A DNA stretch of 36,756 nt, taken from Asterionella formosa. Its lineage: Eukaryota. Shown in pieces: positions 2,251-36,319 of this stretch. The translations under genes and the position numbers were made by a program. Numbering within the stretch: the first letter of the stretch is position 1; every line of letters starts with the position of its first letter. Below the pieces are notes generated by a model that was not told the DNA's origin, made no database searches, and was given only the letters and a program-made list of their open reading frames with translations. The DNA is taken from contig NKIB01015287.1 of the NCBI GenBank assembly GCA_002256025.1, positions 1 to 36,756 of the forward strand, read 5' to 3'.

Positions 2251-2843
2251 CAACTCCACTCACTTTGTAGAACAATCGTGAATATTCAATGCTATCTGCA
2301 TTGCATAAATACCTTTCCTTCATTGAAATATTGATTACTTAGAACATTCTCCATTCGAATATTTACCTTGGTTTGCTGATATACCGGTACTTGTTCTTGG
2401 CAATCAATGCTGTTCAAATTCTCACAGCATTTCAATACGGGATTTTGGCTGGAATATTACTCAAGATTGATTAGTTAGACTGAACTAACATGCACGCAGT
2501 ACTAAATCTTGACAGTACAGTGCCTGTACCTGGTACCTGGTAGTAGGATATGTGACTATTAAAATATATACTACCGGCAACGAAAGGGATGGGGTTTTTG
2601 TCTCCAAGTGGAGGATGAACAGAAAACAAAATATTTATACACAAATAATGACATGATTCAGATATATGCGACCGGTATGAACACCGGTATGCATGCAGTA
2701 CTGCTTGTTTTATTTACGCCATAGAGCTTTAAACATTCGAATGCTTGCAACTTTCTCATCAGTTTCGCATCGTTCTATCACCGGTAGACCCTTGATTATT
2801 GTAGCATCCAGCATATTTATCGATTAAATCCCTGAACATTAAC

Positions 2844-4976: not shown

Positions 4977-5862
4977 GGAGTCGTTTCGCTGGCTTCAAGG
5001 AAAATTGCAACTTCTATGGGATCCTGTTAATAGATCGGTGTAGCGACCCATGCAATGAATGTAACAGCACAGAGCGAATAACACGCATGCATTATGTAGC
5101 ACTGTATGAGCCTACCAGGTACCGGTCCCCAGGGTACCAGGTAATGAAATTCGAGCTGAGCGATATGAGACGATGAGAACAGGCGGTGTCACCGCGTCAT
5201 TTTAATTCAGCATACGTAGCATGTCTGCTGGTACACCGTGGTATTTGCTGTGCGGATAAACTCTCGTAATATACCGGTGTATATATTTATTACTGGTATA
5301 CATGCATAGGACGAATGTTTGCTTCTACTTCATTTAATATACCGGGAATTCCGCGGAAACAGACCCGGTATTTTGTACGAGGTACCTGGTACCGGTAGCT
5401 ACATACCGTTGCGAATCTGCTGCACAAGCCGAGGACAGATGTCATGAAAGGCCAAGAACAATATCGATACAATTTACATACTGCTACGGAGGAGTATTAC
5501 CGGTGCCTGGTAGTCGCCGAAAAATAACATGATGATGCAGGAAAAGCGACGAGACGATATCTTATGTACTGCAATTATAAATATGAAGGTGGCTTACTTA
5601 TACATACATAAGGCACACCGTTTCTACATATTCCGCTGGTACATCCCTACCGATATATCCAATTTATCAATTGCACGAGTAATTTAATACCGGTTGTTTA
5701 CGCGGAACATAAATATATACAAGTATATTCATACCGGGATGTAATTGAACCACTCCTTTTTCATGCCAGCCAACATCACTGACGTGCACAGCTGTGAGAC
5801 TGGATGATATCTTGAGCTGCCATTGAAGGCGATGCTTTTAAGCTAGCCCCTGCATCTTGATC

Positions 5863-7597: not shown

Positions 7598-8555
7598 ATT
7601 TCCAGAATAATTGCCTTTTTACTTTCTAACAGTCACATTATACAATGCTATCTTCGCATTCAGGGACTTCAGCCCGTCGCATTTGTTTATTTTTGGTGTA
7701 TTCCGTCGAAAAAGTAACGCGCGGAACATGTCGAAAATGTGTATCAGGGCAATTTTTTCTTTCTTCACTTCTGCATGAAGAATCAGCCGCATAGAAATGT
7801 ATTCGCGATGAGTCTACCTCTGTCATTCTGCCTATGACGATGGCCTTCATTTGAGGACGTGCTTGTTCAGCCAACTACTATAAATCATTGAGGAACATCG
7901 GCAAGCCCTGCCCTGTAAGCGACATCACTTTTCTTTAATTATAATCACTTTCTGTCAAAGCAAAGCTTTCAACGACTAAATCTTTGGGGTACACACGATG
8001 CGATCACAGGATAAACTAGCCTATGATCGCCTATACTTCCTATATGCTATAGACGTTATGATGCTCCTCTCGGAATGTACATAAAGCATTGACCTACATC
8101 AGATAGTCTTTAGTGTACGCGTGGGAGGGCTCAAGCTAGTAGATTAGGCTATGTAGACTCCAATGTATTATGCTGCATTCAGTAATGTTATACTACTCTG
8201 TCTCGATTTCAGTGAGGCTAAAACACGTACTGTACAGTCAGGGAGAACTGAGATGTCTTAGTTTCTGGCATTTCTTGGGTGTGTTTCGAGTTCGAATACG
8301 AGTCCGTGGTAATTTCATTTTGTTTTTTACTCCGTACATTATAGGCAGGCCAATTGATACTCCGGGGCGATTCCCCGAAGAAGGGCTGCATCTCTTAATA
8401 GTTCCCTGGTACCTGGTACGTGCTAATCCTTATACCGGTAGTACCAGGTACCTGGTTGGGAATTGATAAACCCGGCAGCATGTATATACGCACCCGTATA
8501 AAAACGGGAGACTACCGGTAGCAGCCAAGTGCTCCAAGTGAGTGTACCAACGGTA

Positions 8556-8653
8556 CCAGCAAGTTGCTGTGGTAATTTTGCTGAAACTAAGGATTTAGCA
8601 ACCTTTATCCTAGATTAAAATGTTTATTTAAGCAAAATACCACAACTTGCAGG
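8556..8653. mobile_element. ~98-bp MITE, family M1 copy 1
   Basis: Ends CCAGCAAGTTGCTGTGGTAATTTTGCT ... AGCAAAATACCACAACTTGCAGG are inverted repeats, with TA on both flanks. A near-identical copy lies at 36627..36724. Confidence 0.8.
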
Positions 8654-9012: not shown

Positions 9013-10704
9013 ATGAAAGTCGTCATCATCGGTGGAGTAGCAGGCGGGGCAAGTGCTGCCGCAAGACTGCGAAGATTAGACGAGAGTGCTGAGATTCTCC
9101 TCCTTCAGTCTGGACCAGACGTGTCGTTCGCCAGCTGCGGAATGCCCTACTTTATTGGTGGAGAAATTAAAGACAGAAGCTCCATGGCAGTGCAAACACC
9201 ACAGAGTTTGAATACCCGTCTCAACATTAACGTACAAGTCAATACTCGAGTAGAAGAAATCAACACTGAGAGCAAGACTATTGTTGCTAAAAACGAGCGC
9301 ACTGGAGTAACATTAACATCCACCTATGATCATTTGGTGCTCGCAGTAGGCGCCGAACCCTTCAAGCCGCCCATCCCTGGGATCAATCGCCCTGGATTGT
9401 TTGCCCTTCGTAACTTGGAAGACATGGATGCCATCGTAGCCTGGATCCACAAGAAGCAGCAAGATAATCCAACAGAATCCATGCATTGTGTTGTGGCTGG
9501 AGCTGGTTTCGTTGGAATCGAGATGGTTGAGCAGCTTTCACGCCGAAATATAAAAATAACAGTGGTGGAGATGATGCCGCAGATCATGGCGCCCTTTGAT
9601 ATTGAGATGGCAGCTATCCTTCATAAGGACTTGGAACGTCGAGGTGTCGCTGTGATAACTGGTGATGGTATCTCCGAATTCCATGCCTGTACAAATGGTG
9701 GTGATCCTGAATCAACGGTGGTGGTTCTCAAATCTGGAAGAGTTCTTCCTCCAGCACAAATGACTATTCTTGGGCTTGGACTTAAGCCTGACACCAAAAT
9801 CGCCGCAGATGCTGGCATTGAGTGTGCCAGAAGTGGTCATATCATAGTTGATGAACAACTTCGCACATCAGCACCGAATGTTTGGGCCGTTGGCGATGCC
9901 ATTATGGTCAATAATCCCATAATTCCCGATAGCACATGGGCGATTCCGTTAGCTGGTCCAGCAAATCGCCAGGGGCGAATGGCGGCGGACAATATCATGG
10001 GAAAAGAACGCACCTACAAAGGAACATATGCGGCCAGCGTTATTCGCGTCTTTGATATTGTGGCAGCATGTGTGGGAATGAATGAAAAGTTGGTGGTATC
10101 TAAGAATCTTCCTTTTGCCAGCATCCATGTCCATCCTGGAAGTCATGCCGGTTACTTTCCGGGGGCCAAGTCGATCAACTTCAAGCTGGTGTTCAACCCT
10201 GAGAATGGAGCCATCTATGGAGCGCAAGCAGTTGGAGAAGATGGTGTTGAGAAAAGAATTGATGTGATTTCAACTGCCATGCAAGGCAAGCTCACTGTTT
10301 CGGACCTTGCTGACTTGGAATTATGCTATGCCCCTCCAGTTGGATCTGCAAAGGATCCTGTGAACATGGCTGGTATGGCTGCTCAAAACATTGTGGAAGG
10401 GTTGGTGACGCAAGTTGACTGGAAAGAACTAGAAGCTATTTCAAAGAACCCCGACACGGTTGTCCTCGATGTTCGCAACCCAGGTGAAATTGCTTCCAAC
10501 GGTATCCTAGTTGAAAACGCTGTGAATATCCCGCTTGATAGCCTTCGGGGACGAATGCATGAGCTTCCGAAGGAAAAGCGTATTGTGGTGTCTTGTGCAT
10601 CTGGCCAGAGGGCATATTATGCATGTAGAGTGCTAACGCAAAGCGGTTTCCAGAATGTGGACAATCTCAGCGGTGCTTTCAAAACGTTTAGTTCAATGAA
10701 ATGA
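9013..10704 (+). CDS. CoA-disulfide reductase / NADH-dependent persulfide reductase with C-terminal rhodanese domain (CoADR-RHD/Npsr family)
   Basis: FAD motif IIGGVAGGASAAARLRR, redox-Cys motif SFASCGMPY, NADH motif GAGFVGIE, WAVGD, LAGPANRQGR, YAPP..SAKDPVN, and rhodanese DVR...CASGQRA. 563 aa, intronless. Confidence 0.93.
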   Translation: MKVVIIGGVAGGASAAARLRRLDESAEILLLQSGPDVSFASCGMPYFIGGEIKDRSSMAVQTPQSLNTRLNINVQVNTRVEEINTESKTIVAKNERTGVTLTSTYDHLVLAVGAEPFKPPIPGINRPGLFALRNLEDMDAIVAWIHKKQQDNPTESMHCVVAGAGFVGIEMVEQLSRRNIKITVVEMMPQIMAPFDIEMAAILHKDLERRGVAVITGDGISEFHACTNGGDPESTVVVLKSGRVLPPAQMTILGLGLKPDTKIAADAGIECARSGHIIVDEQLRTSAPNVWAVGDAIMVNNPIIPDSTWAIPLAGPANRQGRMAADNIMGKERTYKGTYAASVIRVFDIVAACVGMNEKLVVSKNLPFASIHVHPGSHAGYFPGAKSINFKLVFNPENGAIYGAQAVGEDGVEKRIDVISTAMQGKLTVSDLADLELCYAPPVGSAKDPVNMAGMAAQNIVEGLVTQVDWKELEAISKNPDTVVLDVRNPGEIASNGILVENAVNIPLDSLRGRMHELPKEKRIVVSCASGQRAYYACRVLTQSGFQNVDNLSGAFKTFSSMK

Positions 10705-10945
10705 ACATCGAATATTGCATCGATTACCCGGTATTGGCTATACATGACATCAAAATATAGATCTCTAACTACATACCGGTACTATCGGTTCTAAATTTCT
10801 ATTTAGAGCCACAGGACACGGATCTACTCTCACCCCTTCCAGAGTACCGGGGTACCCCTGGTACCGTGCGTTGCTTTTGGTACCAGGTACCTGGTACCAG
10901 GGTACCTGCTACGACTGCGAGTAGAAAATAGCCTCCGAGCATCCA

Positions 10946-11019
10946 CCAGAGCAAGTTTTAGCTCTTTTTATCCCAGAATTAATTGTTGTTCAAGCAAAAT
11001 GACCGCAACTTGCTACCGG
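10946..11019. mobile_element. Internally deleted MITE, family M1 copy 3
   Basis: Left end CCAGAGCAAGTT is joined directly to TTAGCTCTTTTTATCCCAG...AGCAAAATGACCGCAACTTGC, matching the right two-thirds of the other M1 copies. Confidence 0.7.
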
Positions 11020-11326
11020 TAAGAGATATCACGAGGAGGAGCAAGAATGAGTTCTGGCTGTGATCATGATGTATTGCTCTGAGGATAGCACCACAACAAA
11101 TCTTATTACTTCGTAATTCTCTACCTGATATACCTTCGTCAGCTTCATATATTATACTAGTCTACTGAAAGGACAAAAAGAGTTGGAGATCGAGCTAATA
11201 AATAGTCTACGACGCAGAGGGGCAGTTAGCAATCAGTAATAACACGTCACTCGCACAACTGGCTTTTGTGGAACGATAGTAGTTGTTGTTTACCTTGCTA
11301 CTATTCAACAAGTCACCTACTCTATC

Positions 11327-12862
11327 ATGACGATGTCATCTCTCGGGTCCTTGTCCTTCAGGCGACTGGTAAATGCGCTCAAGAAGACAAAAAAAACATG
11401 CACGATAGTGGAACAATGTTGCGGTGGGCTGATCAACGCTTCCCTCATGGCTCAACCAGGTGCTTCTTCGGTATTCCTTGGAGGGTCTGTTGCGTACAAC
11501 ACCAAAAAGGCCAAGAAGCTATTGTTGGATGACGACGAATTGTATGCTTCCCTCGTTGAACCTTTGACCGCATCGTCAGCATCAGCAACTGATCGGTACA
11601 TTGAGTCGAAGCTCGACTGGACTGCCAAAACGTCGGTGGCCTTTTGCAAAGCTCTCGATACAGATTATGCCATTGCAGAAGGTGGTGCTGCTGGTCCCAC
11701 ATTTAGACCAGAAGGAATGGAGACGGGATTTGCTGTACTAGCGGTAGCTGGACGAGGTACTGATGGAGTTGTCAAGCTGCTTCGACAAGTGGTGATTCGG
11801 TCCACCCATGCTGATCGTGAACGTAATATGAGGCTTTTTGCTGATTCTGCTGCAGATATGGCAACCGAAGTTGTGACTGGTTCCAAGATACAACAAGAAG
11901 CATTGTATGAACCAGCAAAAGCCTTATACTTAGATCGTGCAACGCATTTACGGACAAATGCAGAAGTTCTCGCGGCGCTAGAAGAAGGGGCAAATTATGT
12001 GATACTTAAAGGCACGCAAATTCTCGTTCGCTCCACGACGCAACTCGCACTTCTTGTTCACAAAGAATTGCTACCGATCGGTGGTACACAAAGAAAGACC
12101 TTTCTTGGCATGTTATCAGGGGAGGGAAAGCAGACGCCGGTCTTTGGGGTTGATCTATTGGAGGGAGTCGACGAGGCTGCGTTGCCTCCACATTCATCGT
12201 TTGTTGACACACGCACAACCGCCCCTCTTTTTCCTTCTATTGAGAATGAACTAGCTCTCCATGCTACAGCGTTGGCTCAATGGCAAAGGCGGACATCCTT
12301 TTGCACCCTTTGTGGAAGCCCCACTACCTTTGTCGATGGAGGAACGTGTTGTCGCTGTACAGGTTGTAAAAATCTAAGTTGGCCGCGACAAGATCCTAGT
12401 ATGATTGCAGTCATTTCTTCCCGAGACGGTCAACGAGTCCTTCTTGCACACTCCACGCGGCATCCACCAAAGTTCCACACTGTTCTTGCTGGTTTCGTTG
12501 AAGCAGGAGAGACTTTTGAGGCCGCGGTAGCGCGTGAAGCGTTTGAAGAAACTGGGATTCGGATTGATGAGGGATCTGTCAAGTATGTCGGATCCCAGCC
12601 ATGGCCATTTCCGCAAAGCTGTATGATTGGGTTTACTGCGACCTCTGACGATACCGTCCCACTTAATGTTGACACTAACGAACTCGTCAGTGCTCGCTGG
12701 TTTAAAAAGTCAGATGTTGCCTTGGCTGCAACTGTAGAAGGTGCCACAATGCAGCTGCCAGTGGCAGAGGCTGCCCTCAAAAATGATCCTACCCTTCCAC
12801 TTCTTATCCCACCCAAAGGCGTGATTGCAAGGAAATTAATCGATAAATGGCTCGTTGATTGA
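11327..12862 (+). CDS. Fusion of a CinA C-terminal/PncC-like domain with a NudC-type NADH pyrophosphatase
   Basis: N-terminal half: VEQCCGGLINASL..PGASSVFLGGSVAYN..K and GAAGP (CinA/PncC pattern). C-terminal half: zinc ribbon CTLCG...CTGC, WPRQDP, Nudix box GFVEAGETFEAAVAREAFEETG and the NudC signature SQPWPFPQS. Confidence 0.9.
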   Translation: MTMSSLGSLSFRRLVNALKKTKKTCTIVEQCCGGLINASLMAQPGASSVFLGGSVAYNTKKAKKLLLDDDELYASLVEPLTASSASATDRYIESKLDWTAKTSVAFCKALDTDYAIAEGGAAGPTFRPEGMETGFAVLAVAGRGTDGVVKLLRQVVIRSTHADRERNMRLFADSAADMATEVVTGSKIQQEALYEPAKALYLDRATHLRTNAEVLAALEEGANYVILKGTQILVRSTTQLALLVHKELLPIGGTQRKTFLGMLSGEGKQTPVFGVDLLEGVDEAALPPHSSFVDTRTTAPLFPSIENELALHATALAQWQRRTSFCTLCGSPTTFVDGGTCCRCTGCKNLSWPRQDPSMIAVISSRDGQRVLLAHSTRHPPKFHTVLAGFVEAGETFEAAVAREAFEETGIRIDEGSVKYVGSQPWPFPQSCMIGFTATSDDTVPLNVDTNELVSARWFKKSDVALAATVEGATMQLPVAEAALKNDPTLPLLIPPKGVIARKLIDKWLVD

Positions 12863-17456: not shown

Positions 17457-20289
17457 AACTCGTATTCAACAACAAGGAAGAGAGAACAGGTATGTGCTTG
17501 TTGATTGTTGTTGTCATGTTTGACTTCCCGCCATGGTTGTGCATGCTAACTTTTTTAGTACATAGTATCTCTTTCTCTTCAGAGCGTTAATGAAGGCACC
17601 TTTCATGTTACTCCTCCACTTCCTGACAGTGCCAATAAATGACCTTCCACTAGTCGAACCCTTGTCCAATGAGGTGAAGTATATTGCCAGTTGATTGTTA
17701 TTGTTTTTCACAAGGTATAAAATACACGCACTGACATTATTTGTTTCCGTTTCTTGCTTCCCAATGCTATCAAAACCACTTAATTCGAAACTCGCACAAA
17801 GATTGTAAAGTCTTCAGGATGCCAACAATTTCGGCATCATATCTTGCCAGCAGCAACAAAATATCACTCCATTGCTCCCTGTCATCCTACTCAAACTTGT
17901 CCTCCTAAAGTTACAAAGACACAAAAGCCCATATCAGCCATTAAATTTTGCCAAAGGTCCGATATTGCCCATCATTAAAAAATATTTTGTATATTTCATA
18001 TGTTCGCATTTTGGCAAGACAACAGACGCCAATTTCCCCTCGGTTTTCCAGCCCTGGGATTGACGAAATCGGCAAGGGGTCTACTTAAGGAAACCATTTT
18101 ATATACTATACAGATTCTAGTAATTTATATCTAGAATTCACCTCGTTTTTGTTCGTCTCCTGAAAATTGGACTCCGGCAATTCACCTTTCACCATGCCAA
18201 TCGTCGTACATCATGACCGGTTTGAAGCGAAATCAGTTCCGCGATGACGCCAGTAGCGATTCTTTGCCTAATGGATGTGGTTGATTGTTGCATCGCTTGT
18301 CTTCTCGAGGCATTCATGTAGTCGCATCGTCCATTTTTCGCGGACGAACGATGATATCGATACATCTGATGTTGGTGGCAAGTTTTTGCTCCGGTCATGT
18401 ATGTAAGCAATGATGCTAAACGGATATTCTACCAGTTACCTGCAGTCATCTAGTCTACATACTTACGTGGTACTGAAAACAACCATGCATGGTTTAAGCT
18501 ATGCTTTAATGCTTACTTTGAACACGTTATAATATTATCTCTGTAGACTCGGTATTATTTTTACGAGACCTGAAATGTTGAATTATATCGTTCACATACT
18601 ATTCATTGATTTTACGTACCAGGGTACCGTATGCCCGATTTCGTCCTCACAAATATAGTTCTCACTCTATCTTGCCTGCCTTTGCTCTATTCGGGCTTGC
18701 AATAGGCAACGTTCGTCTTTCTTTGATCCCATCGTCTGCTGCTTGTTATGCTAGTTGAAGCGGATCGGTAAGTACAACAGTGAAACACTGAATGTGGATT
18801 GTAGATCGTATTTATCGGGCCGACTTTCCGATTTGATTGCTTCCGTGGTTTGTGTTGATCGCTTCCATCGTTGTTTGTCGTTACGCACTGTCGTTTTGTT
18901 TCGATTGCACATATCTACATAAGAACCAATGCATTTATCAATGACTACTCATTGAAGATGTGGTAATGTGCCATTGTTGATCGTATTTGTTGATTTGTAT
19001 AGTCGTAATGATCTCTGAATTGCCACCAAGCAATGCTTTTCTTGTACTAACGCGCTCTGCTACAATTCTACTACGAGTTCGTATCAGAAGCTACATGAAT
19101 ACTCAGCTAGAGAGAGTCAATAGTGCTGGAGCAGCGTGGCGATCATGCTTGCTCAGAATGGAATGATCAGGGTTGCCTGTTTGGTGGTGGGCAGAGAGGA
19201 ATGACTGTGGCGGAAATACTGCTACTGGTGTCAGGTTGCTACAGCGATGCGCATGGTTGCAGCAACTAGACCATTTATGCTACATAACGATGCAGGTCTA
19301 CATTGGGTTCAGCTTTTTTTCTTCTTCTTTCGGTCTTCGATTGTATATGGTGATGGAAAGTCAATGTTGCTTGCCTGTGTAAGTACTACAATGATTCACA
19401 ATGCATACGTCTCCATTGGAACTCTTTTTTTTTGTTTCATTTCTAGCCCAAAACAATTTTTCTATTTCTCATTTGATGCTACTTGTTAAATCGCATTTCA
19501 TACTTTGGTTGCTCCAAACATCATGTTCAATTTTCATTGATGTTGCATTGTTTCATTCTTGTGTGTTTTACGCTTGTTGTACCATCTCTATGCATATTAC
19601 CGATATTCTGGTTGTCATGCTAAAATCGGCAATTTTATTGCTGAAAAATTCGATGTGCCCCATATTGCCCTTAAATAAAAATTACTTAAGAAATTACTTA
19701 AAGGCTTAAAATTACTTAGAAGTACCCGAATGGCAAGACGATAGCTGGAGCGGGAATTGCTGATAGAGTGGTACCAGGTACCCGTATGTATTTATAGTAG
19801 GCTGCTGCCTCTTGTTTTGGCGGCGCGCAGGCACATGGTTTGACACAGCAACAACACCTCCGTGAATCTTGGACTGGAGAATTCAAGGATACTCCCAAGA
19901 TAGGTTTTGTGAGCATTGTCCGTATAGAAATCTTTTGAAAATCTAGATTCGTGGCCTCCAGCAGAGTGCTTTTCAGCTCGCACGGAACAGATAAGCTTAC
20001 AACGGCAATGCCTGTGTCCTGTTGTCTCCTTGTCGTTCGCTTCAATCTTATAATCGGTACCAGGTACAGTGTATGCACTACCGGTGAATAGTGTTGAGCA
20101 TCGAAACACAAAGACAAACCAACTTGGCTGCACATCAATCAAACCGGCTCTCCCTCCATCTGCATCACCGAGCGAACCAATAAAACAAAATACAGGTATA
20201 GTCTGTATTGTCTTCCAGTATCATTGTCTGATTGAGTGCAGGTTAAGGGTTCGACTATAAATACCTGCAGTCTATACAGACATACTAAT

Positions 20290-23200
20290 ATGTCACCCAG
20301 CACGGACGAGTACGACCACGGCGAAGAAGCCGATGCTGAAGCTGGCATAGGAATTGTACAACCCGACTATGAAGTCCTGGCCAAGCGACTTCGTGATTTC
20401 GACGATCACGAAATTGAAGAAGAAGCGAAGCGACGTCGAAAGAGTACGCCTCCGCCAAAAAAGTTGAATAATGAGCAATGGGATTTGATGTTTGATCGGT
20501 TGGTCAAGTACAAGGAGGAGCACGGGGTACGTAGTGTGCCTGCAATGTCGATGGGACCTTAGAGGAGACTATACCGATACTCCATGTCTGTGTGTGCTGT
20601 GTGCATTGACTTAGTTTCGAGAAACCCTTGGTCTAACTCGACACTCGCCTTGACTGCTCTATTCTCTCCAGGATTGCCTCGTTCCCAAACGATATACGCA
20701 AGATCCGAAATTAGGAACATGGGTAGAAACACAGCGCGTGCAGTACAAGAAACTCAGTCGGGAAACAGAGGGGCTGACTTCCAACAATCGCCTCAACACA
20801 GAGCGTCTTCATAGATTGGAAGGCATTGGCTTCTGTTGGTCCGCCAAGAATTTGAGAAAGACCAAGGCTAGCACGACCCCTTTGGAGACTCTGCCAGGTA
20901 TGTATGAATGCAATTTGTTGCTTTTCACGATCACAGTTTTTAAAGCTCACTACTTTCATCATTGTAGTCTATAGCGAAGCAGCAGCATACATCAAGCAAG
21001 ATCCAGAACCCGCTAACCACGAAATTGATTTCCCAGACCCCTTGTCACCTCCACCGAAGCCCGCAGCCAAGCAAGCACGCCAACGACTCAACGACTTGCA
21101 ATGGAACGAAATGTATCAACGTCTAGAGGACTACAAAGAAAAGTACGGCGACACGTTGGTTCCCAAAAGATTCGAGTATGATACTAGATTGGCGACTTGG
21201 GTAGAGACACAGCGGATCTTGTACAGTCGAGAACAGAAGGACGAAGGATGGGACGCTGTCGCAACACCAGAAGATGCAGCTGAAGTGGCGGCCACCATGG
21301 GGGAAGCGAATATGGACGTAGTGGATCACTTGGTTGGGAATGCAGAGGAAGATGAATACGGTGATTCGGAGTTGGACGATGAGACCAAGCTTCCAATCAA
21401 GAGATTGACAGAGGACCGTAAACTTAGGTTGGATCAACTTGGCTTCGTGTGGTCCCTCAGGTCGAAACGTGTGGACGATCATTGGGATGACATGTATCGT
21501 CAACTGTGTGAGTACAAGGATACGTTTGGCGATTGCTTGGTGCCATCCAGGTACGAGGCGAATATGAAACTAGGCAAGTGGGTCGAGACTCAGAGGTATG
21601 AATACACAAAATTGCATCGGGCATCCATGGATCAAGTGCCCGATGATTCCAAGAAAGCGACAAACCCCAGATTGACGGATGAAAGAAGACGTCGCTTGCA
21701 AGATATTGGGTTCGAATGGAAAGTCAAGCACAAGATGAAGCGGTATTATGATCGTCAGTGGGAAGCTGTGTTTGACAAGCTAATGAAATTCAAGGAGGAT
21801 AATGGACACTGGTGAGTTTGTGTTTTTGCCGTGTCATCCTCGTATTGATTGCTGTTGTAACTTATTTTGACGTTTCTTCGGTTCAAAAGTCTCGTTCCCA
21901 AGCGTTACCCACCCGACCCCAAACTTGGCACGTGGGTGCACACTCAGCGAATTCAGTTTCGCAAACTAGTACAAGGATCTTCCAAGAAAGACGACGAGGA
22001 CGACAATCTCGTTGAAGAATCCAAAGACGATGAGAACAAAGACGACGAGCAATCTTATCGTCTCACAGAAGATCGTCGCCGGCGACTGGAAGAAGCCGGC
22101 TTTGTCTGGTCGGCCCGAGAAAACGAAAAGTTTGCTGTTGAGCCCAGTCGCATCACTCGTAACTCCTACGATGACCAGTGGGATTCCATGTTTGATCGCC
22201 TTGTTATGTACAAGGACAAACATGGTGACTGCTTGGTACCAAAGAGATGCAAGGAAGACCAAAAGTTGGGAACCTGGGTCGATACTCAGAGGGTGCAGTA
22301 TAAAAGGATGCGAAAACGTTTGGCGAAGGAAGGAATTCCATACTTGGGACCTCATTCAATAGATTGCGATGATGATCCCGCTTCTACGACTTCGCGTAAG
22401 CCTCTTATTGGGAGGTTGACTGATGATCGGGTTGGCCGTTTGGAATCGTTGGGTTTTATTTGGTCGCTTCGAGATGACTGGCAGAAACACTATTTACAAC
22501 TTACAGAATACAAAAAGGAGTATGGTCATTGGTGAGTCTTGCATCATTACATGTGTTTTACTGCTTAGTTATTTTCTCGCCCGCGCCCCATTGCTGCAGT
22601 ACTCATCAGTGTTGATTTTGGTTTGTTCCAGCAATGTTCCTGCTCGTTATGCAAAGAACCGTCGTCTTGGAATTTGGGTTTCGGCTCAGCGCCAACAGTA
22701 CAAAGCCACCATAGCGAATCAATTTTTAGAAGATGACGACAAGCGCAGAGGTGCAGTTCCACTAACGCAAGATCGAATCGACTTATTGAACGACCTAGGC
22801 TTTACATGGACTATCCGTTCCCGTGATAGCATGGGAGAATCCTGGAACCAACGTTTTGAAGAGCTCAAGCAGTTCAAGGAGGAGTTCGGCAATTGCCATG
22901 TTCCAACCCGCTACCTGCCAAACCCTGAACTTGGCATTTGGGTTGGCACTCAGCGGTATGTTATTTTCATTCGAAGCGCCGATTCGGTTTGTTTTCATTA
23001 TCTATATTGAACGCGAACACTAACTTCTTGTGTCTTCATGTGTCCAACAGAACTCAATACCGTCTCTTTCTTGAACAAAAAGGGATTGAGGGTGCCGGCA
23101 CTCGCGGCTTGCAAGTAACGTCGATGAATGATACACGTGTACGTCAGTTGGAAGAGCTGGGTTTTGCTTGGGCATTTCGCGCTGGACAAGATTCCAATTG

Positions 23201-23633
23201 GCGAAAACGCTTCCTTGAACTGCTTGACTTTCGCGATCTGCACCAACATACTCAAGTACCTCGGATGTACGCTGCTAATCCCCGACTCGGAGAGTGGGCA
23301 GCGTTTCAACGGGAGCAGTATCAAATGCGAGCCGAAGGCCAAGAGTCGTCACTTGATGACGACAAGCTCATCGAGTTGAGTGAAATTGGATTTTCTTGGG
23401 AGGAACCAAGTATAGAGATTTCCGCTGAGGTCGATCGTGTTGCTACCGAAGCCCAAGTTCACATTCCCATAGACTATGACGACGAAGAAGGAGCTCAGAT
23501 TGTGGCTGTTGATGATATTGAGCAATACGTTTCAATGGGTCATCATCAACCAATCGACTCTTTGGCGGCCAACCATGGTGATATTGAAAGTATGCCGGAG
23601 GCTTCGAATGTTCAAGATGGCCATGGAATCTAA
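20290..23633 (+). CDS. Helicase-associated (HA) domain tandem-repeat protein with 8 HA repeats and no helicase core (6 exons)
   Basis: Exons 20290..20526, 20672..20897, 20968..21811, 21890..22531, 22632..22955 and 23051..23633. All introns are GT-AG with consistent phases. Each repeat follows W..M(F/Y)..L..YK...G.CLVP..Y..D.KLG.WV.TQR...R...L..LGF.W. Confidence 0.9.
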
Positions 23634-24790: not shown

Positions 24791-25500
24791 GGTAGACTAT
24801 AATTCAAAAGAAGGGGTATCAAGGGCAACTGTGTCCCATTATTGCTTCCGCTCGTCGAGAAGAAAGGAGAATCAAAAGCAAAGCCTGGATGAATGAGAAA
24901 GCTTCATAAGCCTAACCAACTTATGGTATGCCCATCACCGTTGTAGATGGGATACTGAGCGATAAACGACACAAACCGCAGAGGAGTACTTCAACATGCT
25001 ACATCTGCATCGTACCGCTACCCCGTATGTAAGTATAGTAAAAGTTGGTATTGACTTGCCGTAGAGGCTCCATGTGGAACTATCGTTCATTTCTTTTATT
25101 ATAAAAAAATATGCTGGTACAGGTAAGCAATTTCGCACATGCATACCGGTATATCATGTGGTTTGCATATCTCCGGGTACTATGAATAACTGCATCTGAA
25201 ATACCTGGAAGGTCGGTCCGGTACCTGGTACCAGGTAGCACACATTTTATGCGAAACCTTTTCAATTTCGAATCACTCCCTATGATTTGTCTCATGCCTG
25301 CCTGCCATACAAGATAGGCCAGCTTTCGATGGAAATTATATTCCTTAAGTAATTTATGAAAATGTAACTCTTATTGACTGATGACGAGTTGCAGGATCAG
25401 TCTCTGAACACAACTTGGATTTGCTAACTGATGAACTTGCTTGTTCAGCAAACTGTCTTCTAGCATTGGAAGACAAATAGGAATCATCGCTTTCTACATT

Positions 25501-25589
25501 TAGAACTTGCTGACAATAACTATAATTTGCTGACTACGAATTGAATATGCTGACAATGATTAGAGCTTGCTGACAACGACTAGAACTTG
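25501..25589 (+). repeat. 20-bp tandem repeat (TTGCTGACAACGACTAGAAW), about 4 copies
   Basis: Period-20 array visible directly in the sequence, inside T1 copy A. Confidence 0.85.
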
Positions 25590-26400
25590 TGGATACAACA
25601 AGATTTTCTGAATGATCCTTATGCCTATGAAGTGGCATTACATGAACAGACACAACCACTACCCCTGATAGCCTTGCCAATACTATGAACATAAATAATG
25701 CTGTATCTACCAAATACCGGTACATGGTGACAGTCATTATCACACTTGATGCAACAGCCTACCAGGGTATCAGGTGTGTACCACCACTATATTTGCAATA
25801 TCACACATATCACATGCATATCACATATACTACTATGGCTACATAGGAAATATGATCAGGGTACCCAAGATAGCCCTTGTTGTAGATGCTAGTATTTAAT
25901 TATTTAGCTTAGATGTTGAGATTTGTTTCCATGTACAAGCAAAACGCTACAGTGTAGTTCTTGTGAGCGGCTCCTGGTGAATCCTGCATAATGCCATCTC
26001 CACCTTGACCATGATGAAAATAGCGAATTTCTCCACGAAAAATGAGAATGATTCTTAGGTATTGGGTACATATATCTAAAACGACATAGATAATACAATT
26101 GTAAAAAATAATTGTAGAAACACTACTATTGGCAACGAAAATTGAAGTTGCCGATGGTTCATTTCTTCATGGTGCTGTACTTGAGATGATGCATGCACAA
26201 TTCAAAACGACGAAGTTACAACGAGATTTAACACTTTCACAGTATGCAAAACTCTGCACTTCGGCAATCTGTAGCTAGATCGAACCAATTTTCGTTTGAT
26301 TCTCTATATAAACCATATCAATTAATAGTGCATTGACATTTTCAAAATTACACTTTGTTCATGATTACTGATCCACCACCAGTTGGTGACTATGATGTAC

Positions 26401-26497
26401 AACTAGAAATCTGCTGACAAAGATTAGAAATTGCTGAAAACGACTAGAATTTGCTGACTATGACTAGAAATTGCTGTCTACGACTAGAATTTACTGA
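26401..26497 (+). repeat. Second array of the same 20-bp repeat, about 5 copies
   Basis: CTGCTGACAAAGATTAGAAA / TTGCTGAAAACGACTAGAAT / TTGCTGACTATGACTAGAAA / TTGCTGTCTACGACTAGAAT. Confidence 0.85.
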
Positions 26498-27536
26498 TTG
26501 GTGAATTCCATTTGTAAACCGACTTCCAGTTGCTGAATACCATTACCAGTGGTAGTACTACCGGTAGGTGAACACAATTTCGATGATCAGAGCACGACTT
26601 GGATTTAATGATTGATAATTTAACATGACAAAAGTACACTTAAGATAGTTTGCAATGGAAAACCAGCCTATCTCGTCTTGTAGGCATGGGATGAGTCATT
26701 GGGAGTGAGTCGAAACTGAATAAATGCGCATAAAACCTGCGCTACCAGGCCTTCCTGGGGGCACACACTGAGTACCACTAAGGTAGTAGGGCAAAAGAGT
26801 AAGGACATCATTACCAGGGTACGGTTTACTGTACTAAGGAGTGACTGGAGTTGGACTCCAACTACCAGATAATATAGTGCTGTGTGTACACCTGGGAATG
26901 CCCAGAACTAGCTATCATACATTTCTTGTCCCAACATAACTGATGGGCAATGCCCACCACAAATAGCTTGGCTCTTCCTTTTATTGTTGCCCCATGTGTG
27001 ATGAAGTAACTCTTGAGTTCCTTAAGGTTGCTGCATTTGAACTCCTAGCTTGAACTAGGGTCAACAATATAATACTAACTAATCAAAACTTTACTTTTCA
27101 AGTAAAAAAGAAATATTCATATCGCTACTTCTTGGAGCTGTCACCATACTAGGACACTCTTTCCATATGCGTGGATACAGTCATTGGCCAAAGTATAGGG
27201 TAGGACAACTCTATACATTGTCAATATAGGATCTGGCAAGAAAGTGCAGAAGGGAATCTGGCTATTTCCAATGCTGAAAATACTTGTTGAATTTACTAGC
27301 CAGGCCAAATGGTATATTTGGCATAGTAAAAAACTGGGAAGTTCCTGTCTGCGCTCACCCGCCAAAAGTCTCTACATATAATAGTAAGTACGGAGTAACA
27401 AATACTCCAGTTCCACCTGTACGTAGATGACCATCAGGAAGCATTCATTCTACCAGGGTACTGGTACCTGGTACCTGGTCTTGCCTCATGATGGGAGCTA
27501 TGTGATTTGCTTCTGAGAAATGAGGATTGAGCTGCG

Positions 27537-30575: not shown

Positions 30576-31774
30576 GGTGGAGTACAGAACGGACCTTCAA
30601 TGCTGTCGATTGTAATGCTCAAGGGCCGATGGCTAATATTTTATAGTTCTCCAAATATACCGGTATAATTTACATGTTGGCAGAACGACCAATAAATAGG
30701 GACCACTCTCTTGCATGTATGTTTTGATATTTAAAAATATTAAGTATCAGAATATGTATATCATATATGTGCGCGCTGAATATAAAAATAAATCTATAAT
30801 ACCAGGTACCAGGTACCGGTAGTGCACCAAAGTCGCCTGTCGCCGTATGGACCGTAAACCTCTTTATATCTCCACGTACTTCTCGGGTTTTGTAGAGCAC
30901 TATTAGGGATGTAACTACCACCCACCGGTAATAAAAACGGTCGTGGAGATACCGGTGTATTGTGAAATTCTAACCCAGATACGCCAAATATAAGGGGTTA
31001 GGGCTACGTTTCGCGACATCATCCCACACCAAAATAGTATGTAACGGTATATCAACAGAAACCACCTTGGCTTTTACACAAATTTTGCTGCCGAATACAC
31101 CGCACATACAAACACGAATTAAATCACTTACCGGTACTCGAAGTACCAGTAGGTGATGTTTTGAAAGTGGTGAAAACTAGCAGAAATGCCCCATCTAGTG
31201 AATAAGTGAGGTTCATTTCCATAGGGCTGATTTTAAAACAATTCTGATAAAATTTCTGTTTTAGCAAGTTATGACGAAAGACTTCTTAACACAATTTTCT
31301 GTTGGTTCCCTTAGAAGGGCGCCTGTTTTTAGCATGAGTTTCTTGATAATCCATGAATGCATCAACACCACAGGTTTTTTAGTAATTTCCTGCATTTTAA
31401 TTGGATGTTGGTTTGTTGCTCCCAACAGTCCAACATTATTCTGTGATACGTGGCAGCAGCATCAAAATGCGTGATGTACATATCCATTGTTAAAAGCGTT
31501 CATTATTTCAAGAGACATTTTCCAATGGACAACTTCAACCAGCAATGAGACTCCTTGTATTATTGGCGGGACATGCTGGTCTTGTCACCATTACAGCTAA
31601 AAAAGCCTGTGAGTAAAAACCAGTATGATCTTATGTTTTATTTAGCAGATGCTCGAAAAGTTACTGACTAAGCTAAATTTTTGTTAGACCAACAAGAATA
31701 ATTATGATATACCAAAACCGCTTTCTATTTGAGGATTAACTTAATATTTGTCTCAGGATATGACTACCATATAA

Positions 31775-31845
31775 TTCATTGTCCTGGATCCTCCAATGTA
31801 CACTGCCATGACTGATTTTACTTAAGATGGGTCCAGGACAATGAA
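31775..31845. repeat. Short hairpin with 17-bp arms
   Basis: TTCATTGTCCTGGATCC ... GGGTCCAGGACAATGAA (1 mismatch), with a 37-nt spacer. Confidence 0.7.
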
Positions 31846-32497: not shown

Positions 32498-33656
32498 GGT
32501 AGCGCACGTTTTATGCGCACCTTTTCAGTTTCGAAGCACTCCCAATTGATCATTTCATGCCTGCCGGACGAGATAGGCCAGCTTTCGATGAAAATAATAT
32601 TCTTTATGTAATTTAGGAAAACGCTACTTGTAATGACCGATGACAATGCGCAGAGTGAGTCTCTGAAGATGACTCGGATTTGCTGACTGAATGAACATGT
32701 TCAGCAAACCGTCTTATAGTAGCTTCAGAATCCAAATAGGAATCCTACATTTCTACAATAATAGCTTGCTGACAATGACTGAAATTTGATGACTATGACT
32801 AGGATTTGCTGACAATTACTAAAATTTGCTGACTACCACTAAAACTTGCTAACAGCGACGACTCAATTTGCTGACAACGATTGGAACTTGCGAATAAGAA
32901 TAGATTTTCTGAATGACCCTTACTAGTATCACGCCTATGAAGTATATGCATGAACAAACACAACCACTACCCCTTGATTGCCTTGCCAATACTCCAAATA
33001 AGCATATGTAACATCATATCTATATACATGGTCACAGTCATTATCACGCCAGATGCAAGAGACTACCGGCCGGGGTACCGCGCTCTACTACTACCAGTAT
33101 TTGCAATATCAAACATATATCCCATATGACTAATATACTATGGCTACGTAGGATACTGGTATATATTTTCAGGGTACCTGAGGTAGCCCTTATACAAGCT
33201 AGTATAAAATTATTTAGCTTACATGTTGAGATTTCATTCTGTATATAAAACACTTGAGTGTAGTTCTTGTGCACGGATGGAGAATCCTGCATCATGCCAT
33301 CTCCGCCTTGACCATGACGAAAATAACGAATTTCTCCATGAAAAATGAAAACGACACTATGATATCTGGTAAATATATCCAACACAACATAGATAATACA
33401 ATTGTAAAAAAATTGTAATAACACTAATATTGATAACGAAAATTGAAGTCGCCTTACCAATGTAGGTGAACACAGTTTCGATGATCAGAACACAACTTGG
33501 ATTTCATGAATGATAATTTAATATTGAAGAAAGATACTTAAGAAACTTTGGAATGAAAAGCCAGTCTATTTTGTCTGGCAGGCATGAGACAATCCATTGG
33601 GAGTGCGTTGATACTGTAAACATGCCCATAAAACGTGTGATACCAGACCTCCCTGG
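32498..33656. mobile_element. Family T1 copy B, lacking about 400 bp present in copy A
   Basis: Same TIRs (GGTAGCGCACGTTTTATGCG... / ...CATAAAACGTGTGATACCAGACCTCCCTGG) and a colinear interior. It lacks the segment corresponding to about 26155..26540 of copy A. Confidence 0.85.
32761..32891 (+). repeat. 20-bp tandem repeat array in T1 copy B, about 6 copies
   Basis: TTGCTGACAATGACTGAAAT / TTGATGACTATGACTAGGAT / TTGCTGACAATTACTAAAAT / TTGCTGACTACCACTAAAAC ... Confidence 0.85.
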
Positions 33657-34396: not shown

Positions 34397-36319
34397 TTAT
34401 GGGCATCCGCACTTTGCTTGATTTTCAGGTAGGTGAACAGCAATGCATTGCATACTATCCGGTGGGACAAAAACAGCATATATGTAGATGTCTCCACAAA
34501 GAAAGCCATCTCCGGCATCTGAGATGAAGACAGAAAAGTTACTAGGACGCCCTCCATTAAGGCACACTATACACCCTGAGGAGGAAGTGCCGACAGTTTG
34601 GTTAGTCGGAGAAGAAGTTTTGATTTGCACTGGAGCATGAGTAACTGGTGAACGAGTATGCGGTTGATGAGTGACTGGGGCTTGAGTCACTGGAGCCCGC
34701 GTAACTGGGGCGCGAGTAACTGGGGCTTTAGTAACTGGAGCTTCAGTAACCGGAGCCCGTGTCACTGGGGCTTTAGTCACAGGAGCTCGAGTAATTGGAG
34801 CTGGAGTAACTGGTGCTGGAGTTACTGGAGCGGGAGTAACTGGAGCAGGAGTCACTGGAGCAGGAGTAACTGGAGCAGGAGTAACTGGAGCAGGAGTAAC
34901 TGGTGCAGGAGTAACTGGTGCAGGAGTAACTGGTGCAGGAGTAACTGGTGCAGGAGTACCTGGTGCAGGAGTACCTGGTGCAGGAGTAACTGGAGCTGGA
35001 ATAACTGGAGCTGGAGTAATTGGAGCTGGAATAACTGGAGCTGGAGTAACTGGAGCAGGAGTAATTGGAGCAAGAATAACTGGAGCAGGAGTAATTGGAG
35101 CGGGAATAACTGGAGCGGGTGCAACTTGAACAATTGGAGCGGGAGTAACTTGAATAGGAGTAATTGGTGGTGAAGGACGTGGTGGGTACGGGTCAGGTTC
35201 GCCATCACAGCAGACGCCCCTGTACTCCCCTTGGTAAAAGGTACATTGTTTTGCACCAGAATTCGCCTGTGCCGTTGCAAAGTATTCAATGAATCCACAG
35301 CTGTGTCCAAACGACGGAACATAGATGTTAGGGTCTGACAGAGAATTCCCTGCTCCACAGATATGGCAATAATCAGTCGTAGCAGGGTTGCATCCACAGT
35401 CTCGGCCAGCAATGGCTTGGGCAGCCGGGCAATCCAATTGCGCAATGTTATCCAAAGCAAACTGGTCCAAGGCGCACGTTCCATCAACTTTGGTAAAGTT
35501 AGATGATCTGCTCAAGTCAAAATAGCCCCCGTCTTCACATAACGTACAGTCTGGAGCAGCGCTTGGGCAGCCACATGCCCACTGGTCGTAACTATTTGTA
35601 TTGTTGTCGCAGGAGGCAATTGGCCAGAAAGCAGCCACGCTGTCGGCATTTAGACAATAGTCGGTTATGTCCGGAACACGGGTTTCACCACGGGCAGCAC
35701 CACCGTTACATATCGAGCACTGCTCTCCCGTGCTGATACCAGGGCACTCGCACAGGGATGGAAGGCCACTGTCTTGTTTCCCGGCACATTCAGCGCTGTC
35801 GATAGCAAATGTGCGAAGGAAGGTATCATAGCCTCCACATGTATTATAGACACCAATTGCTTTCGAAGGGTTTCCAACCGAATTGCCGTCAGGACAAATG
35901 GAACAAGGTACTGTAGTGCCGGGGCATCCACAGACTGATTGAATGTCCACGTGACTGGCAAAATCTGCCAAATTGGCTGTGCATTCTTGCTCTGTGGTCG
36001 AGAAAAGGGCAGCGAATTCAATATTATTGCAAGTAGCAATGTTGGCATCACCGTACGGATTCGGCGGCGATCCATCGGAGCAAACATTGCATTTATACGA
36101 AGTTTCCTCCGCAAAGCACCCACAGAGCGTCGGATAGGTCCCTTGCTGGAACTGGGTGCAACCATCGGCACTCATCGACGGAAGCAACGCAATGACTTGT
36201 TGGCAAGTGCTTGCGAGGACTGCGTCTGCCGGGAGAGGAGGAGTACTTCCATCAGGGCACAAAGTACATTGCGAAGTGACAGAGGCCACGAGAGCTAGAT
36301 AAGAGAGGATGCGGAACAT
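34397..36319 (-). CDS. Secreted Cys-rich modular protein (7 CxxCxxG...CGC modules) with a long (T/I)PAPV pentapeptide stalk; probable cell-wall or extracellular glycoprotein
   Basis: ATG at 36319 gives the signal peptide MFRILSYLALVASVTS. Modules begin CTLCPDG, CNVCSDG, CSICPDG, CSICNGG, CTLCEDG, CHICGAG and, after the stalk, CIVCLNG. No TM segment or GPI-like tail. Confidence 0.85.
   Translation of the reverse strand: MFRILSYLALVASVTSQCTLCPDGSTPPLPADAVLASTCQQVIALLPSMSADGCTQFQQGTYPTLCGCFAEETSYKCNVCSDGSPPNPYGDANIATCNNIEFAALFSTTEQECTANLADFASHVDIQSVCGCPGTTVPCSICPDGNSVGNPSKAIGVYNTCGGYDTFLRTFAIDSAECAGKQDSGLPSLCECPGISTGEQCSICNGGAARGETRVPDITDYCLNADSVAAFWPIASCDNNTNSYDQWACGCPSAAPDCTLCEDGGYFDLSRSSNFTKVDGTCALDQFALDNIAQLDCPAAQAIAGRDCGCNPATTDYCHICGAGNSLSDPNIYVPSFGHSCGFIEYFATAQANSGAKQCTFYQGEYRGVCCDGEPDPYPPRPSPPITPIQVTPAPIVQVAPAPVIPAPITPAPVILAPITPAPVTPAPVIPAPITPAPVIPAPVTPAPGTPAPGTPAPVTPAPVTPAPVTPAPVTPAPVTPAPVTPAPVTPAPVTPAPVTPAPVTPAPITRAPVTKAPVTRAPVTEAPVTKAPVTRAPVTRAPVTQAPVTHQPHTRSPVTHAPVQIKTSSPTNQTVGTSSSGCIVCLNGGRPSNFSVFISDAGDGFLCGDIYIYAVFVPPDSMQCIAVHLPENQAKCGCP
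34628..35165 (-). repeat. Coding 15-bp tandem repeat (about 35 units) encoding TPAPV/TRAPV
   Basis: GGAGTAACTGG(A/T)GCA units on the + strand. Confidence 0.95.

Follow-up and report, generated by a model that had tools for sequence, protein, structure and literature searches.

Results

The window and its motifs

The window analysed in this study is the whole of contig NKIB01015287.1 (C15287 of G000, the Asterionella formosa assembly GCA_002256025.1), 36,756 bases read on the forward strand. It is compact eukaryotic DNA with diatom-type genes, and the named relatives of one transposase resident in this genome are diatom proteins. A multi-exon gene at 20287-23633 contains repeated W-rich modules that are helicase-associated-like by eye, and a Cys-rich frame on the minus strand (34569-35198), which probably encodes a surface protein, contains a 15-base coding tandem repeat of P-A-P-V-T units. 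A copy of a dispersed 1.6-2 kb repeat, with a GCAATTCCCGC end at 19760, occupies 18200-19761; there are at least 40 copies, 98-100% identical over the part searched.

Short units bounded by TA and often chained through shared TAs are scattered over the non-coding DNA. Two chains lie at 10845..10906, TA-CCGGGG-TA-CCCCTGG-TA-CC and, after a 15-base spacer, TA-CCAGG-TA-CCTGG-TA-CCAGGG-TA-CC; they are probably scars of the transposon family designated Q below, and they are found in independent contigs too. Other chains are TA-CCTGG-TA-CCTGG-TA (2527..2542, from the motif count), TA-CCTGG-TA-CCGG-TA (5383..5397), TA-CCAGGG-TA-CTGG-TA-CCTGG-TA-CCTGG (27451..27479) and TA-CCAGG-TA-CCAGG-TA-CCGG-TA (30800..30821). 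CCTGG, CCGG and CCAGG units are clustered at 8405..8456, and GG-TA-CCAGG-TA-CC and GG-TA-CCAGG-TA are located at 19770..19782 and 20056..20066, respectively. All the example positions listed in a preliminary description of this DNA were present, off by a base or two at most.

Copies of mobile elements and one element end are also present. M2, a 90-base NuwaI/Harbinger-like MITE with CAAGTTGC termini, lies within a TACCAGGTA at 8560..8649, with CAG duplicated at 8557-8559 and 8650-8652, and the right half of another M2 copy, itself decayed (10953..11010), adjoins a TACCGGTA at 11014. M1, which is non-autonomous, 1.55 kb long and bounded by GAAGGTCC termini, is located at 25208..26754. Arrays of a 20-base tandem unit, whose number varies among copies, were seen within M1 copies at 25468-25611, 26392-26515 and 32747-32870. 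A decayed end of a Passer-like (P2) element stands behind a TA on the plus strand at 31766..31810, the sole trace of a candidate motif maker detected in the window.

By pattern count, TACC-N(0-3)-GGTA occurs 41 times in the window, and the four forms named earlier account for 14+9+7+5 = 35 copies, so the statement that there are more than 20 intergenic occurrences is correct. None of the 41 copies falls in the coding intervals (17,198 bases, set by hand from the ORF list), as had been said of coding exons; all are within the 19,558 non-coding bases. Under an order-2 Markov model, 0.35 copies of TACCGGTA were expected in the non-coding DNA of the window and 14 were seen, and for the other three forms 9, 7 and 5 copies were seen against 0.15, 0.13 and 0.03 expected.

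TA-CC(N0-3)GG-TA is enriched 40-60-fold elsewhere in the genome as well. In 380 kb from five other contigs, counted outside long frames, we found TACCGGTA 178 times (2.9 expected), TACCWGGTA 117 times (2.7 expected), TACCAGTA/TACTGGTA 86 times (11 expected) and TACCAGGGTA 17 times (0.5 expected), which bears out the excess in non-coding DNA that the preliminary description had proposed to look for. A larger, non-random sample of 817 kb, composed of the window and parts of ten long contigs from earlier hit lists, contained 373 TACCGGTA, 9 of them in long frames (37% of the sample), and 296 TACCWGGTA, 3 of them in such frames. Extrapolation to the genome gives roughly 31,000 and 25,000 scars, about a hundredfold more than the few hundred surviving element ends described below. 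Nevertheless, the motif units make up just 5,927 of the 816,756 sampled bases (0.7%) and have therefore added little non-coding DNA, contrary to the suggestion that they build it. In the same sample there were 34 TACCAGGGTA, 4 TACCTGGGTA and 8 TACCAGGGGTA, the extra G run being solely on the side opposite the A.

The two motif classes differ in their neighbours. In the 817-kb sample, TACCGGTA was mostly solitary, with neither GG before it nor CC after it in 608 of 746 strand counts, whereas TACCAGGTA lacked both neighbours in just 50 of 296 cases. Pairs of the CCGG-CCGG type numbered 3, against 66 of the CCWGG-CCWGG type. Neighbouring units carried identical W letters in 35 pairs and opposite ones in 31 (p 0.71). 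Such a balance is expected if the events were independent and randomly oriented; pure slippage or pure fold-back would not produce it. The idea that each new TA is targeted again finds no support in these counts: re-targeting builds chains, yet TACCGGTA rarely pairs with itself. We attribute the chaining to the preference of family Q for GG-TA-CC.

Units as insertions

Polarised insertions were collected from 19 copies of M3 and 21 copies of M1 (40 copies after removal of three duplicates). M3 is a 1.4-kb element with M2 termini (L146:1970-3363, on contig C458) that has at least 46 matches in the genome; it is packed with inserted units and should be good material for dating the scars. Among the 119 insertions, six of the 12 six-base ones were exactly TA -> TACCGGTA, at six different sites, and none of these six was a tandem copy of its neighbour. 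CCAGG and CCTGG insertions were found once each. The remaining insertions were mostly 3-4 bases long, many of them tandem copies. The 75 polarised insertions in 36 copies of a third repeat included an exact and a near-exact CCGG, besides single CGG, CCAGGG and CCAGCAGG units. Of 18 M3 copies compared at a GGTACCGGTA site, several had acquired CCWGG units there; at plain TAs the gain was CCGG. In the window, the M1 copy has two units (CCTGG and CCAGG) at an internal TA of its terminal repeat (25222..25237); comparison of M1 copies showed that these are missing from most of the others, and that in L024 the same TA also holds two units of this kind. The motifs originate as non-tandem insertions at plain TA, and the short insert is surrounded by a duplicated TA, as expected of an excision footprint.

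The units also vary between populations. A single-copy contig of run X2 (5,930 bases), which comes from another population, differed from the window by 18 substitutions and 16 gap letters. The latter correspond to three indels of 8, 7 and 1 bases, two of which are whole units: CCAGGG-TA gained at 2571 and CCAGG-TA lost at 5133. The gain is at the left TA of a decayed unit, TA-CCGG-CA (2572..2579). The loss affects the last 7-base unit of TA-CCAGG-TA-CCGG ... CCAGGG-TA-CCAGG-TA (5113..5143), which is present in run X6. The chains at 10845-10906 were unchanged in the contigs of X6 (record 23, covering 10266-10907, and record 24, covering 10879-11393). The contigs of other public runs therefore carry the motifs, in agreement with the preliminary expectation that an independent source should do so; this check rests on assembled contigs of four other runs, not on raw reads, with the platform off record. 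Run X17 was left out of the comparison because it covers too little of the window.

Families P and Q

The preliminary description had proposed a search for a DD(E/D) transposase with CC...GG termini, and two such families, P (CCG...CGG, DD35D) and Q (CCA...TGG, DD37D), were located. In a profile search, PF03184 (DDE_1) had 93 matches in the genome. P1, with CCGTAAAACC ends (131 exact 13-mers), is represented by a full copy of 2,460 bases at L106:3178-5637, with TA on both sides and an open frame of 421 residues; P1 copies are 99-100% identical at nine different flanks. P2 and P4 likewise start with CCGTA, and the family duplicates TA (42 of 47 junctions). The P transposase matches PF03184 with an E-value of 3e-20, and D338 and D374 in L147 are separated by 35 residues. 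A BrkDBD match (E 0.005) was below the curated cut-off, and a search for HTH domains gave no match. The 26-base repeat match, the element length and the frames of 421-433 residues from stop to stop agree with the sizes given for Passer elements (terminal repeats shorter than 30 bp, a length of 1.6-4 kb and a transposase of 400-500 residues). However, P1 has a second frame of 145 residues with a Cys/His-rich start (L106:3348-3782, on contig C2689), convergent with the transposase, which has no match in Pfam; since Passer elements have a single ORF, we call family P Passer-like.

Family Q was recognized by a boundary scan as elements with symmetric CCAC...GTGG ends between TAs. They are 3.1-3.8 kb long, encode a transposase of 723 residues, and form two subfamilies with 176 and 227 exact terminal 15-mers in the genome. 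The Q protein P0001 (723 residues) had 70 matches in the genome, the best of which were 97-99% identical. Its triad D241, D390 and D428, with a spacing of 37, is kept in 87, 88 and 87 of 88 relatives, respectively. P0001 had no match in Pfam or among PDB sequences and no likeness to the P transposase by BLAST, and its nearest neighbours in a protein language model are DDE_1 clusters (0.95). TA was found at 50 of 58 Q junctions in the genome, and paralogous empty sites carry a single TA. The conserved DDD triad and the terminal inverted repeats with TA duplication are as expected of pogo elements, and Q is referred to as pogo-like. An intact Q copy of 3,773 bases with a 723-residue frame (L383) comes from a metagenome and has units on both sides. 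Q relatives in metagenomes have CCAG or CCAC ends; of 40 candidate ends, 37 adjoin a TA, which is preceded by G in 27 and by GG in 11. In another metagenome contig (L384:3999-4020), two Q ends stand back to back with one TA-CCAGG-TA between them, an arrangement that may be real or an assembly loop.

The flanks link each motif class to one family. Junctions were taken from pattern searches that made no use of flanks, and those of P2 and P4 from all collected loci. GG preceded TA at 32 of 50 Q junctions and at 4 of 42 P junctions (Fisher p 5e-8), and in 60% of TACCWGGTA, 10% of TACCGGTA and 7% of all TA; P thus accepts nearly any TA. Over five bases, Q junctions have the profile C56 C54 W64 G72 G80, close to the C46 C55 W66 G67 G80 of TACCWGGTA, so that the scars share the target preference of the element. 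Agreement between P junctions and TACCGGTA flanks is less good at the -1 base than at the -3 base. A full unit directly adjoined 21 of 50 Q junctions and 1 of 42 P junctions. Among the 29 other Q junctions GG was still found in 11, and the preference of Q is therefore independent of earlier scars. The inserts themselves correspond to the terminal 2-4 bases of these resident TA-duplicating elements: CCGG can be derived from CCG...CGG, and CCWGG from CCA...TGG minus one base. CCAGGG contains one letter that neither Q end supplies.

At one repeat site a Q end and a unit were found at the same TA in different copies. TA-CCAGGG-TA at 18617..18626, within the dispersed repeat, was recognized by comparison of repeat copies: 28 of the 30 closest copies have a plain TA, and the unit is present in the window and one twin. 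L275/L351 has a Q end, a single one, at the homologous TA. The Q-occupied L351 is 95% identical to the window flank, against 96-99% for empty copies, and is thus not the closest relative; it represents a separate insertion at the same TA, i.e. a shared hot site and not the descent of the window scar. A search of the collected loci for allele pairs with element and scar gave just paralogous cases.

MITEs that duplicate CWG

M1 had been described as having CCWG ends. This is incorrect: M1 at 25208-26754 sits between direct copies of CTG, the CWG is a target duplication, and TA was found at merely 4 of 13 junctions. M2 has 621 exact ends with TACCWG in the genome. Of 49 M-element pairs listed, many of them retrieved with an M2 query, 26 were decayed at one end, and in all 23 intact pairs the W formed a direct repeat that was independent of element orientation. 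Copies without TA retain CWG on both sides. A TA-flanked MITE with asymmetric CCA/AGG ends, considered for M2, was ruled out by this direct repeat. M1, M2, M3 and M4 therefore show the CWG target duplication that defines NuwaI elements, although a 1-base duplication of W with G as the first element base would be indistinguishable. Unselected M2 ends were within TACCWG in 13 of 25 CWG cases, against an availability of about 5%, which indicates that these MITEs land in the motif and that M2 is its user, not its maker.

PF13359 (DDE_Tnp_4) had 150 matches in the genome, but none of 45 loci examined had M1/M2 termini around a transposase, as an autonomous NuwaI partner with its DDE transposase and Myb/SANT gene would. 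The young family among these matches, of Harbinger type (L195-L210, L186), shows AGGG ends (AGGGTCGTTC) and duplicates 3 bases that bear no relation to the motif; it has about 35 identical transposase matches with different flanks and has probably been active recently. On contig C12442, a segment of 1,872 bases (17737-19608) is bounded by M2 termini and contains broken frames, Harbinger-like by eye; it is a possible decayed autonomous partner of M2. PF13358 had no match in the genome; PF01359 and PF07592 also had none, but they had none in control genomes either, which is hence no evidence of absence.

Promoter bias and decay

With frames of at least 250 residues as gene proxies, the 18 divergent gaps held 3.77 motifs per kb, the 32 tandem gaps 1.64 and the 31 convergent gaps 0.62 (p 1e-12), in line with the earlier remark that many motifs lie near gene 5' ends. 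The peak, 4.2 per kb, lay 200-400 bases upstream; downstream of genes the density was 0.44, about nine times lower. In a cruder test by nearest gene, the 5-prime to 3-prime ratio was 60:14 for TACCGGTA, 48:18 for TACCWGGTA and 53:43 for control TA words. The corresponding ratios for P and Q ends were 9:9 and 6:8, small numbers, since most junctions had no gene in reach; these ends showed no such bias, and the bias of the scars is thus not explained by the positions where elements survive. Lone units change at CpG, TACTGGTA being found 116 times against 30 expected, whereas other substitutions were seen 11-37 times against 10-28 expected. This excess suggests that lone units may be methylated. 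Part of the CpG-changed class may be derived from Q.

Discussion

In this study, TA-bounded motifs of A. formosa were found to arise as insertions at TA and to share their flanks with two transposon families. It is likely, judging from these sequence comparisons, that the motifs are excision scars of two TA-duplicating cut-and-paste families, P and Q, and that those of Q act as a ratchet. Excision of Tc1/mariner elements cuts a few bases within the element, and the resulting 3-prime overhangs are end-joined to footprints of 2-4 terminal bases, for example TACAGTA/TACTGTA of Sleeping Beauty (PMC6943129, in part); the Tc1 footprint is taCATGta, as cited in a part of PMC3520976. If excision of P and Q leaves 3-base overhangs, a length assumed from other Tc1/mariner elements, two CCG overhangs of P would pair via CG to give TA-CCGG-TA, single and scattered. 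Two CCA overhangs of Q could not pair, and loss of one terminal A would give TA-CCAGG-TA or TA-CCTGG-TA with equal odds; CCAGGG would be a rarer Q product. It speaks against this scheme that the untrimmed form TACCATGGTA is rare, with 3 copies in 817 kb, and that CCAGGG has a letter absent from both ends. The proposal of the preliminary description that elements with CC...GG ends repeatedly insert and excise thus stands as to the insertions at TA and the TA-duplicating DDD families with such ends, but M1 is not their source.

In a Q scar one TA would be followed by CC and the other preceded by GG, and this is the context that Q prefers as its target. Q could then return, and chains with random W would grow. 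The ratchet would be confined to Q, and a P scar could seed a chain. CWG-duplicating MITEs (M1, M2, M3 and M4) would subsequently land in the middle of CCWGG units. The pile-up of scars in promoters probably arises because insertions there are frequent and are tolerated solely after the element has departed; selection could also act on the retention of units after scar formation. The excess of scars over surviving elements, about a hundredfold, requires a long turnover or families that have been lost. A CAG-ended Tigger-like family is also present in the genome, represented by a pogo element at L062:299-2626 and in L061 that duplicates TA and has CAGT ends, yet its expected scar, TACAGTA, is only 1.3-fold enriched.

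The promoter bias raises the alternative that the motifs serve as transcription-factor sites and owe their abundance to selection in promoters, the likeness to transposon ends being secondary. The contrast between divergent and convergent gaps, the peak at 200-400 bases upstream and the absence of a 5-prime bias in intact element ends agree with it, as does the report, in a part of PMC10031896, that ATACCGGTAT/GTACCGGTA lie upstream of co-expressed oomycete genes. Yet the units arise as whole non-templated insertions within non-coding repeats, are gained and lost between populations, decay at CpG, and have flanks that mirror the site preferences of two transposon families; promoter selection is therefore unlikely to be what set their abundance. 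The MITEs are abundant and land in the motif more often than its availability predicts, and one TA-CCAG-CAG-G-TA insertion (L351) could be their scar, so that chains made on excision of M1, M2 and their kin, as first supposed for M1, had to be considered. This is very improbable, because the direct, orientation-independent W in 23 of 23 intact pairs means that CCW is not their end, new units arise at sites without CWG, and the doubled form TACCWGCWGGTA was found just once in 817 kb.

CCWGG chains might also have grown with no transposon, the palindrome GGTACC prompting slippage or fold-back repair after a first unit. This would fit the finding that 83% of TACCAGGTA have a GG or CC neighbour and that the M3 GGTACCGGTA site gained units in several copies; one 7-base gain (L170) is readable as a tandem copy, and the insertions seen most often in these repeats are tandem duplications of 3-4 bases. 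Slippage would give identical and fold-back mirrored neighbours, whereas both kinds occur almost equally (35 to 31). The central W is untemplated in new half-site units (L175 and positions 25222, 5135 and 2572 of the window), and a transposon with matching target and ends, Q, exists; such growth seems improbable in view of these results. The genome is fragmented (15,436 contigs), and artefacts of assembly or sequencing might be suspected, but the motifs, found again in contigs from four further public runs, are scarce in coding DNA and have decayed by mutation, which leaves this explanation hardly credible.

Excision scars by P and Q remain the preferred reading, and this has several implications. 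Footprints are usually regarded as rare by-products, whereas the scars are here the most over-represented words of the non-coding genome. Because the scar classes are linked to transposon families by their flanks, the genome contains a countable record of past transposition. Family Q would provide a concrete positive feedback between scar and target choice. Given the strong promoter bias, motif searches in stramenopiles can take scars for transcription-factor sites, or else scars have turned into such sites.

With respect to the elements themselves, Passer is a member of the pogo superfamily that is marked by DD35D and short repeats and was reported from nine stramenopile species in the relevant part of PMC7386202; its excision footprints are 0-4 bp according to a part of PMC9976928. 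As far as these accounts go, P shares with Passer the DD35D, the DDE_1 match, short terminal repeats, TA duplication and a length of 2.5 kb, and differs in the second frame of P1. Q has in common with the unclassified stramenopile lineages of the pogo superfamily the DDD triad, TA duplication, short terminal repeats and the language-model likeness to DDE_1, and differs in the DD37D spacing, the length of 720-960 residues, the absence of matches in Pfam and PDB sequence searches, the conserved CCA(C/G) ends and the GC-rich extended target. The supplements of pogo and PHIS papers may list family Q or stramenopile NuwaI elements. Sleeping Beauty, by contrast with Q, is reported to prefer AT repeats (PMC3016246, in part).

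The NuwaI group of PHIS elements, reported mainly from animals, is defined by its duplication of CWG (PMC4482050, in part), and Harbinger3_DR targets a CCWGG palindrome, AAACACCWGGTCTTT (PMC3016246, same part). M1-M4 share with them, as described there, a CWG duplicated inside a palindromic target; unlike theirs, the target of M1-M4, (GG)TAC-CWG-GTA(CC), was itself likely made by another transposon.

In oomycetes, ATACCGGTAT and GTACCGGTA are also promoter motifs in a part of PMC3520976, where the likeness of TACATGTA to a footprint was noted and a footprint origin set aside, and TACATGTA, a Tc1-type footprint word, is bound by PsMyb37 (PMC11134190, in part). These motifs and ours are TA-bounded 8-base palindromes that are abundant upstream of genes in stramenopiles, and TACCGGTA is the same word in both. 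In the portions of those papers that describe them, the oomycete motifs are read as transcription-factor sites, whereas here an insertion origin was shown. Since TACCGGTA has been published there as an oomycete promoter motif, the scar origin or co-option of those motifs can be tested directly. It is conceivable, though rather doubtful, that a pogo-like transposon whose scar regenerates its preferred target wrote the genome-wide, promoter-biased motif, that a second transposon superfamily lands there, and that the host may read it as a cis-element; the oomycete TACCGGTA/TACATGTA would then be scars co-opted by transcription factors.

In the literature searched, which left most subscription journals outside, we found no account of these diatom motifs or of a footprint that regenerates its own target. 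The nearest case is the repeated insertion and excision of Stowaway at one intron site of Triticeae beta-amylase (PMC1925063). In the part of that account concerned, re-insertion at TA beside an existing footprint was deduced from comparative sequence, as it is here; it concerns one site and showed no sequence-specific feedback, whereas in our case the effect extends over the genome and goes with a measured preference for GG-TA-CC. With Tc1/mariner footprints the motifs share the duplicated TA around the first or last few bases of an element and, as we infer here, end-joined 3-prime overhangs. Such footprints are assay products or rare events, whereas tens of thousands appear to be fixed in this genome, in two classes tied to two families by their flanks, one of which would leave a scar that recreates its own target. 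In conclusion, the motifs most likely represent an accumulation of excision scars; such events are known, here at unusual density, with two makers identified and a probable feedback between scar and target in the case of Q.
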